Source of the DNA: a virus
Lineage: Duplodnaviria; Heunggongvirae; Uroviricota; Caudoviricetes
Length of the DNA stretch: 5,222 bases
Virus record (IMG/VR): IMGVR_UViG_2602041568_000014
Strand: one strand, 5' to 3'
The notes under the pieces are model-generated. The model was not told the DNA's origin. It was given only the letters and a program-made list of their open reading frames with translations, and searched no databases. Position numbers and translations under genes: made by a program. Of this stretch, positions 1,825 to 2,139 are shown piece after piece. Numbering within the stretch: the first letter of the stretch is position 1; each line of letters begins with the position of its first letter.

Positions 1825-2139
1825 ATGCATAACGATCAACATAATTATGATTTATGCCTGCAAGCCATAAATGAGCGGGTAAAATCAGAGTGCCTCTTAC
1901 TCCTCCCACAAGAACACGATGCAGTAAAATCCATTCAGGCTGAGCCGTATGGACATCTCACACCTGTGACTCTCGGCATTATCGCCAGAGCATTAACACA
2001 GCCCATGCTTATGCGTATTAAGACCAATATAAATAACTGGTTGAATGAAGAATTAAGCTACCTTGATTGTGAGTGGGACAATCATTACGCAAAAACACAA
2101 AAAGAACGCATCTTCAGTCGATTATCCAGCAACAGATAA
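1825..2139 (+). CDS. hypothetical protein, 104 aa, no recognisable motif; on the strand opposite to the late operon
   Basis: ATG at 1825 is preceded by AGAGGA with a 6-nt spacer. The ORF fills essentially all of the space between R and the 268-aa gene and is visibly AT-rich compared with its neighbours. No competing minus-strand ORF exists here (longest minus-strand ATG ORF found by manual translation is about 29 codons). No signal peptide or TM segment. Confidence 0.55.
   Translation: MHNDQHNYDLCLQAINERVKSECLLLLPQEHDAVKSIQAEPYGHLTPVTLGIIARALTQPMLMRIKTNINNWLNEELSYLDCEWDNHYAKTQKERIFSRLSSNR

Follow-up and report, generated by a model that had tools for sequence, protein, structure and literature searches.

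A putative moron gene antisense to the lysis genes of lambdoid Escherichia coli prophages

The stretch of DNA analysed here (IMG/VR record IMGVR_UViG_2602041568_000014, a virus of the Caudoviricetes; 5,222 nucleotides (nt) in all, designated 'the window') is the late/lysis region of a lambdoid Escherichia coli prophage, with the late genes on the minus strand. Between the endolysin gene R and a late gene of 268 amino acids (aa), called the 'partner gene' below, an open reading frame (ORF) of 104 codons lies on the opposite strand, and it is the subject of this analysis. Taken as a whole, we think it probable, on balance, that in lambdoid E. coli prophages this ORF is an accessory gene of the moron type, encoding a small binding protein with a role in conflict. 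We are highly confident of the part of this explanation that concerns the gene itself, namely that it is real, that it came as an insertion, that it belongs to a family with an apparently novel fold which is spread over prophages and an integrative conjugative element (ICE), and that it is independent of both the holin and the partner gene.

The ORF runs from 1825 to 2139 on the plus strand and begins with an ATG, as originally predicted; given the in-frame stop codon at 1789-1791, this ATG is the earliest possible start. The Shine-Dalgarno sequence described for it, AGAGGA, is indeed present (1813-1818, plus strand), with a 6-nt spacer to the ATG. Length alone is weak evidence for a gene: in 20,000 first-order Markov simulations of the 452-nt gap between R and the partner gene, an ORF of at least 104 codons arose in any frame in 1.85% of cases, which makes the observed length only marginally unusual, and it is conservation that supplies the proof. 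A set of 53 loci from RefSeq and IMG/VR was used for this purpose. At 51 of them the frame was intact, with exactly 104 codons and no indel, at up to 23% nucleotide divergence, so that the proposed gene survived a search for disrupted copies at homologous loci. The two remaining copies have an insertion-sequence-like element at codon 6 (L056, around 1080-1100) and a 5' end swapped for an unrelated sequence (L038, around 2250-2400). The ORF frame is free of stops, and each of the five other frames contains 2 to 12. Pairwise ratios of nonsynonymous to synonymous divergence (dN/dS, Nei-Gojobori) were 0.24 to 0.49 at dS 0.3 to 0.6, and 0.25 against a subfamily of 52% identity, at dS 1.6. On the same genome pairs, dN/dS was 0.13 to 0.37 for the C-terminal domain of the partner gene and 0.06 to 0.09 for the lysozyme R; the ORF protein is therefore constrained, yet it is the fastest-evolving of the three neighbours. 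We conclude, from comparison of sequences, that the ORF is a genuine protein-coding gene under purifying selection.

The gene was described as more AT-rich than its neighbours, and this proved to be the case: its GC content is 41.0%, compared to 46.5% for the partner gene, 53.9% for R, 54.2% for Rz and 54.9% for the esterase gene, and its GC content at third codon positions is 0.42, compared to 0.46 to 0.60 in the flanking genes. In related prophages devoid of the ORF, the partner gene abuts R, at a distance of 36 nt from the R start codon in L009 (O157:H7 TW14359) and in L010 (an ST131 strain), against 452 nt in the window. Since the partner gene abuts R where the ORF is missing, comparison of the loci places the ORF on a discrete AT-rich insertion of about 416 nt, situated between the gene that follows the holin and R. 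The ORF is present or absent at the same site in otherwise syntenic phages, and its composition is distinct from that of the flanking genes, as expected of a moron.

One part of the original prediction had to be abandoned, namely that the ORF is inserted exactly at the position of the holin gene S, which it would replace. On the minus strand, a class II holin gene has its 3' end at 2960-3019, 4 nt ahead of the partner gene; the part visible there encodes LTNLYFKIREDRRKAARGE, with which the 71-aa class II holin of L002 also terminates. A holin was found upstream of the partner gene here, and in every related locus examined. The misreading arose because a run of undetermined bases (N) at 3020-3108 hides most of the holin gene. 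The ORF itself has only its neighbourhood in common with class II (S21-type) holins, from which it differs by the lack of a Phage_holin_2_1 Pfam match, by the lack of a transmembrane segment (its maximum 19-residue hydropathy is 1.16) and by its orientation opposite to R. The earlier moron reading is thus upheld for a real antisense gene that is AT-richer, present or absent as an insertion and under purifying selection, but not for the position of S.

The partner gene consists of an N-terminal DUF1327/YdfR domain (aa 1-100) fused to a conserved C-domain of ~115 to 160 aa (aa ~154-268). Its N-terminus is mosaic: the DUF1327/YdfR domain is present in the window and in phage 86, and an unrelated coiled-coil-like segment takes its place elsewhere, while the last ~115 residues are conserved throughout. 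No Pfam match was found for the C-domain, and only a marginal PDB match. DUF1327 (PF07041) was also searched for in the ORF, without a match; this domain belongs to the neighbouring 268-aa gene. C-domain DNA was present in 787 genomes against 95 for the ORF, about an 8-fold difference. In the near-identical loci L001 and L002, the partner gene is frameshifted or partial (a pseudogene), and the ORF there is intact and identical. The two genes converge, as originally described, with stop codons 9 nt apart (2137-2139 for the ORF, 2149-2151 for the partner gene), and a scan found no terminator-like site on the plus strand downstream of the ORF.

On its other side, the ORF is separated from R by a 128-nt spacer that shows 93% column identity among ORF-bearing loci. 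This conservation has an ordinary cause, since the R-proximal part is the common upstream region of R, found also at the YdfR-to-R junction of L011, which is devoid of cargo. More precisely, the R-proximal ~66 to 78 nt are common to cassettes without the ORF, the distal ~50 nt are cargo-specific, and the first 51 to 60% of the spacer query adjoins lysozyme genes in 2276 genomes. In L012, representing DLP12-like prophages, positions 2141-2380 (plus strand) correspond to the window slot 1775-2148 and contain a different ORF of 79 aa (WP_001168526.1, phrog_21218). This cargo resembles the 104-aa ORF in its slot between a YdfR gene and R, in its orientation, in its leader of ~78 nt, which includes the left arm of a hairpin, and in its GAGGA Shine-Dalgarno sequence. 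It differs in that the protein is unrelated and that the hairpin of L012 has no T-run after it. Homology between the two cargos was rejected (BLASTP E = 0.11, different PHROG families). As the same leader precedes two unrelated proteins, the slot takes alternative opposite-strand cargos, which suggests a hotspot for cargo exchange.

The ORF product is WP_000551290.1, identical to orf6 of the Stx2-converting phage 86 (BAF34038.1; UniProt A0A0A8KGH7). It matches the hidden Markov model of phrog_1853, a family of 'unknown function', over residues 1-103 (profile positions 57-158 of 159). These entries all designate the same family and nothing distinguishes them from the ORF; they come without a function, a domain name or a publication. 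The identical gene is also carried by E. coli 55989 and O104:H4. Full-length ORF DNA was found in 95 of 5426 complete E. coli genomes, at 132 places with 77 to 100% identity, and all of the matches listed in E. coli genomes were annotated 'hypothetical protein'. The exact protein is encoded on at least 1000 public contigs, and two records of Stx2a-converting phages of strain 12E129 (LC567841 and LC567842) carry the ORF at 77%. A profile search of 1.8 billion representative proteins and a second homologue search returned only short proteins of ~104 aa, and all of those with a named source came from E. coli. Three giant-protein 'homologues' reported by HMMER (P0018, P0019 and P0028) were discarded as artefacts, in which 11 to 28 repeats of less than 10 bits each sum falsely. 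No locus was found in the GTDB species-representative genomes that were scanned, and among the PLSDB plasmids there were three weak matches only (36 to 38% identity), which offers nothing for a plasmid-borne family. No publication was found on the ORF accessions. Riley et al. 2012 cite phage 86 for other genes only (PMC3342100), and the Gifsy defence protein GiPD474 (PMC12724215) belongs to a different region and is unrelated to the ORF.

More distant subfamilies were identified. The subfamily of 52% identity (L058; phrog_1853 match E = 1.2e-39) occupies the same slot, with a partner gene that has co-diverged at 59% identity. Another 674 E. coli genomes, many of them O157:H7, carry the L064 subfamily (E = 4.8e-47), which lies between the holin gene and R without any partner gene. 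At L064 itself (3959-4273, plus strand), the RefSeq entry WP_000138558.1 starts from an internal ATG and has 90 aa; an upstream in-frame ATG gives 104 aa, the family length. The deepest subfamily (31 to 38% identity; E = 6.8e-18) is not carried by phages: it is located in the accessory region of an ICE of the TIGR037xx type, where the TraG module and an integrase-like gene flank it and where ArdA and a type III restriction-modification system lie a few kb away. It has a promoter-like sequence of its own, TTGTAC-16-TTTAAT. This ICE homologue (105 aa; L061-L063, and L067 at 12340-13319) follows a co-oriented gene for a protein of 188 or 217 aa, with N-terminal transmembrane helices and a soluble C-domain, for which no Pfam, PHROG or PADLOC family match was obtained; the two could form a two-gene unit. 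No homology was found between this neighbour and the prophage partner gene, and a conserved two-gene module was therefore rejected.

As to the protein, the original remark that it contains no recognised motif was borne out: there was no Pfam, NCBIfam or PADLOC match, and no known fold. An AlphaFold2 model built on a 7-sequence alignment predicts a five-helix bundle with a predicted local distance difference test (pLDDT) of 88.8 and a predicted template modelling score (pTM) of 0.82, the helices being placed at residues 3-26, 32-39, 47-56, 59-78 and 83-102. In this model the fold is apparently new, without structural relative. The product is predicted to be soluble and cytoplasmic, and the isoelectric points in the family range from 4.6 to 9.3. 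Its N-terminus, MHNDQHNYDLCLQAINE, is hydrophilic and predicted to be helical from residue 3, and contains no signal peptide or lipobox of the Bor/Lom type. Only G43, W72 and E76 are invariant family-wide; E17, K20, P41, L57, T58, Q92, K93 and F97 are near-invariant. Nothing suggests catalysis, DNA mimicry or a membrane protein. Given this absence of catalytic-looking conserved residues and of DNA-mimic or membrane features, we infer, as the most economical reading, a small binding protein.

The mechanism that we propose would then be as follows. The ORF, pointing against late transcription, would be expressed from the resident element; the protein would bind another macromolecule, a host or competitor factor, without enzyme activity, and would act in element-host or element-element conflict, in the manner of an exclusion or anti-defence factor. 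We put forward this mechanism (own promoter, expression in the lysogen, binding mode and conflict role) tentatively. The role is probably unconnected with lysis, because homologues persist without the partner gene, without the holin and outside phages, in the ICE accessory region. The lysogenic-conversion, exclusion and anti-defence roles suggested in the original prediction are guesses, for which the distant homologues in an ICE accessory region are the only new support, and an indirect one.

Expression signals were searched for in the spacer and around it. The candidate sigma-70 promoter, TTTATC-17 nt-TATGTT (Table 1), belongs to an element whose TTTA and TATGTTA columns and 17-nt spacing are invariant across all leader types, while the sequence between them varies in the alignment. 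In the 52% subfamily, the homologous site is TTTACA-17-TATGTT, which has 9 of 12 matches and is called as a promoter by the scanner, and the L064-type leader contains an additional perfect TATAAT. The element TTTA(Y)N-17-TATGTT, reading away from R and antisense to the late operon, is kept in L011, L012, L058 and L064. It might give rise to an antisense RNA across ydfR and the holin gene in many lambdoid prophages. The GAGGA core is kept in window-type leaders (the 68 to 100% protein subfamily) and ahead of the 79-aa cargo of L012, and is not evident in the L058 and L064 leaders. Downstream of the candidate promoter, a terminator-like hairpin is found 45 nt upstream of the ATG. In L005 a perfect-stem version is called as an intrinsic terminator on the plus strand (8 bp, 6 GC pairs, a loop of 5 and the tail TTTTATCT, 52 nt before the ATG). 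The window version carries a single C.A mismatch, equivalent to a G.U pair on the minus strand, and its fold z-scores are -1.1 (plus strand) and -2.7 (minus strand). The variants of this hairpin are split, type A favouring the minus strand and type C and L012 the plus strand. The hairpin could be an attenuator of plus-strand transcription, could stabilise a 5' end, or could function in the late mRNA. An Rfam search of 1697-2148 gave no match.

Several of these observations weigh against the proposed mechanism. The sigma-70 scan of 1697-1824 found no site reaching threshold, and the candidate promoter is a weak one. The promoter-like segment is not specific to the ORF, since it also stands upstream of R in loci without cargo (L011). 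The hairpin between candidate promoter and ORF could block productive transcription, and there is no downstream plus-strand terminator, unlike in the classical promoter-gene-terminator moron. The ORF's own promoter and its expression in the lysogen are inferred from the DNA sequence. A search of PADLOC-DB v2 at E<=0.1 gave no match for the window, L064 or ICE proteins, anti-defence families being outside this library. The association with ICE conflict genes is loose, with several kb and an integrase gene between the homologue and ArdA. Finally, in subfamilies of at least 52% identity the ORF always lies beside the partner C-domain and co-diverges with it, which makes a functional link possible.

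Two alternatives deserve most weight. It could be that the locus acts mainly in cis, the protein being secondary: plus-strand transcription starting just upstream of R would run antisense through the partner gene and the holin gene, and would damp leaky holin expression in the lysogen. With no plus-strand terminator after the ORF, a transcript would indeed enter the partner gene and S antisense, and in every leader type, even where there is no cargo, the promoter-like element keeps its position and reads away from R. This explanation does not account for a reading frame under purifying selection and free of indels; moreover, the ICE homologues have no holin to oppose, the terminator-like hairpin directly follows the candidate promoter on the plus strand, and many prophages are devoid of the ORF. 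We consider it unlikely. The other possibility is that the protein is a dedicated partner of the C-domain of the convergent gene, as its regulator, antidote or assembly factor, and part of the lysis cassette. In all prophage loci of the subfamilies with 52% identity or more, the ORF converges with a C-domain gene, at 9 to 11 bp, and the two co-diverge (100, 76-78, 68, 61 and 52% for the ORF, versus 100, 81-83, 81, 77 and 59% for the C-domain). Physical linkage alone would yield such co-divergence, however, and the C-domain is found without the ORF in ~690 genomes (787 versus 95). The partner gene is broken in L001 and L002 next to an unchanged ORF, and neither the L064 subfamily (674 genomes) nor the ICE subfamily has such a partner. 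We therefore hold a dedicated partnership to be quite unlikely.

Two further explanations concern the nature of the ORF. One marginal profile match, to the helix-turn-helix (HTH) domain of 3iwf_A (E = 0.054, residues 17-99, with 7 sequences), would make the protein a small RpiR-like DNA-binding regulator. The match was lost with a 14-sequence profile, there was no recurring HTH Pfam match, and no HTH proteins were among the top fold matches; an RpiR/HTH identity was accordingly rejected at the level of both sequence and fold, and is very unlikely. As for a chance open frame in AT-rich spacer DNA, with no gene at all, frames of this length do occur in 1.85% of simulated 452-nt spacers. Against this, 104 codons have been kept across a dS of up to 0.58 (1.6 versus the 52% subfamily) with dN/dS of 0.24 to 0.49, homologues of 31 to 54% identity are equally long in genomic contexts that differ, the fold is predicted with confidence, and the Shine-Dalgarno sequence is conserved. 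The comparative data have already refuted this explanation, which we regard as extremely improbable. All four alternatives are less likely than a moron-type accessory gene.

A wider extension of the moron-type explanation can be formulated, in which phrog_1853 would be a new-fold family of small inhibitors, of the anti-defence or inter-element exclusion kind, shared by lambdoid prophages (Stx2 phages included) and ICEs, with, in prophages, a conserved antisense promoter lying directly ahead of R and a slot in which unrelated opposite-strand cargos of 104 and 79 aa are swapped behind a common leader. In this complete form the proposal is doubtful.

The features of the window are collected in Table 1. 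The late genes follow each other in the order esterase, holin, 268-aa YdfR-fusion gene, then, beyond the opposite-strand ORF, R; all related loci have the same arrangement, with a post-holin gene in the third place.

Table 1. Positions of the lysis-region features, and of the candidate expression signals, in the window
Feature	Position	Strand	Basis or remark
Rz and Rz1	207..680 and 269..454	minus	lysis genes beyond R
Endolysin R, 177 aa, Phage_lysozyme, divergent from the ORF	1163..1696	minus	PF00959, E = 1.4e-24; phrog_7
R-to-ORF spacer, 128 nt	1697..1824		between R start and ORF start
Candidate sigma-70 promoter, TTTATC-17 nt-TATGTT	1712..1740	plus	7/12 matches, weak
Hairpin CGCCAGCG-GTAGGA-CACTGGCG, then TTTTT	1753..1779 (stem-loop 1753-1774)	plus	terminator-like, 45 nt upstream of the ATG
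104-aa ORF	1825..2139	plus	phrog_1853, E = 8.4e-50
268-aa partner gene	2149..2955	minus	Pfam DUF1327 (PF07041), E = 1.5e-44; phrog_1085
Class II holin (S), 3' end	2960-3019	minus	translates to LTNLYFKIREDRRKAARGE and a stop; stop codon 2960-2962
NanS-p-like esterase (DUF1737, SASA and DUF6645 domains)	3016..4947	minus	domain matches

The runs of N in the window are compressed placeholders: by comparison with the near-identical loci L002 and L003, the 37 N at 144-180 stand for ~89 nt and the 89 N at 3020-3108 for ~321 nt. The latter run conceals the greater part of the holin gene, the region that separates it from the esterase gene, and the esterase 3' end, and because it is compressed, the C-terminus of the ORF listed as '643-aa' is artificial. 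Two small ORFs for hydrophobic membrane proteins are located between R and Rz, at 823-1062 and 677-898 on the minus strand (phrog_1115 and phrog_4906); shorter forms of them are annotated as hypothetical in related loci. A strong 14-pair hairpin with A/T runs on both sides lies at 1040-1072, between R and these downstream small ORFs; inside the late operon, it is terminator-like and apparently bidirectional, and it gave an Rfam match to the 'rimP leader' below threshold (E = 0.23). Upstream of the esterase gene, at 5139-5217, sub-threshold Rfam matches (STnc100 3' end, E = 0.014; anti-hemB, E = 0.056) fall over GC-rich hairpins, which are probably terminator structures downstream of the late promoter.

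What was already known of the gene is its annotation as a hypothetical protein, its identity with orf6 of phage 86, its membership of PHROG 1853 and the kind of element to which it belongs. The analysis adds the corrected position of the holin, the delimitation of the insertion, a link from prophages to an ICE, a slot that takes alternative cargos behind a shared leader, and a fold that is apparently new. The family is common, being present in 95 plus 674 of the 5426 complete E. coli genomes (~14% if the two sets do not overlap), and the ORF is carried by sequenced Stx2-converting phages, yet it has no name, domain, structure or publication. Because its new-fold model is confident and its presence or absence varies at a defined slot, it is an easy target for functional tests. 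If it does turn out to be an exclusion or anti-defence factor, this slot of the lysis cassette would join the known lambdoid sites for conflict genes.

As it stands, the ORF is an ordinary uncharacterised moron, best compared with bor (opposite strand, next to Rz) and lom of phage lambda, morons of lambdoid phages whose transcription opposes that of the late operon or is independent of it; a bor gene is also annotated in phage 86. What it shares with these is its small size, an accessory nature, a location within or beside the lysis cassette on the strand opposite to late transcription, a higher AT content than its surroundings, and presence or absence among otherwise syntenic prophages. It differs from them in its unrelated sequence and in its product, which has neither signal peptide nor lipobox and is not an outer-membrane lipoprotein, and also in its signals: its promoter is a candidate, and in place of a terminator downstream of the gene, it has a terminator-like hairpin upstream.
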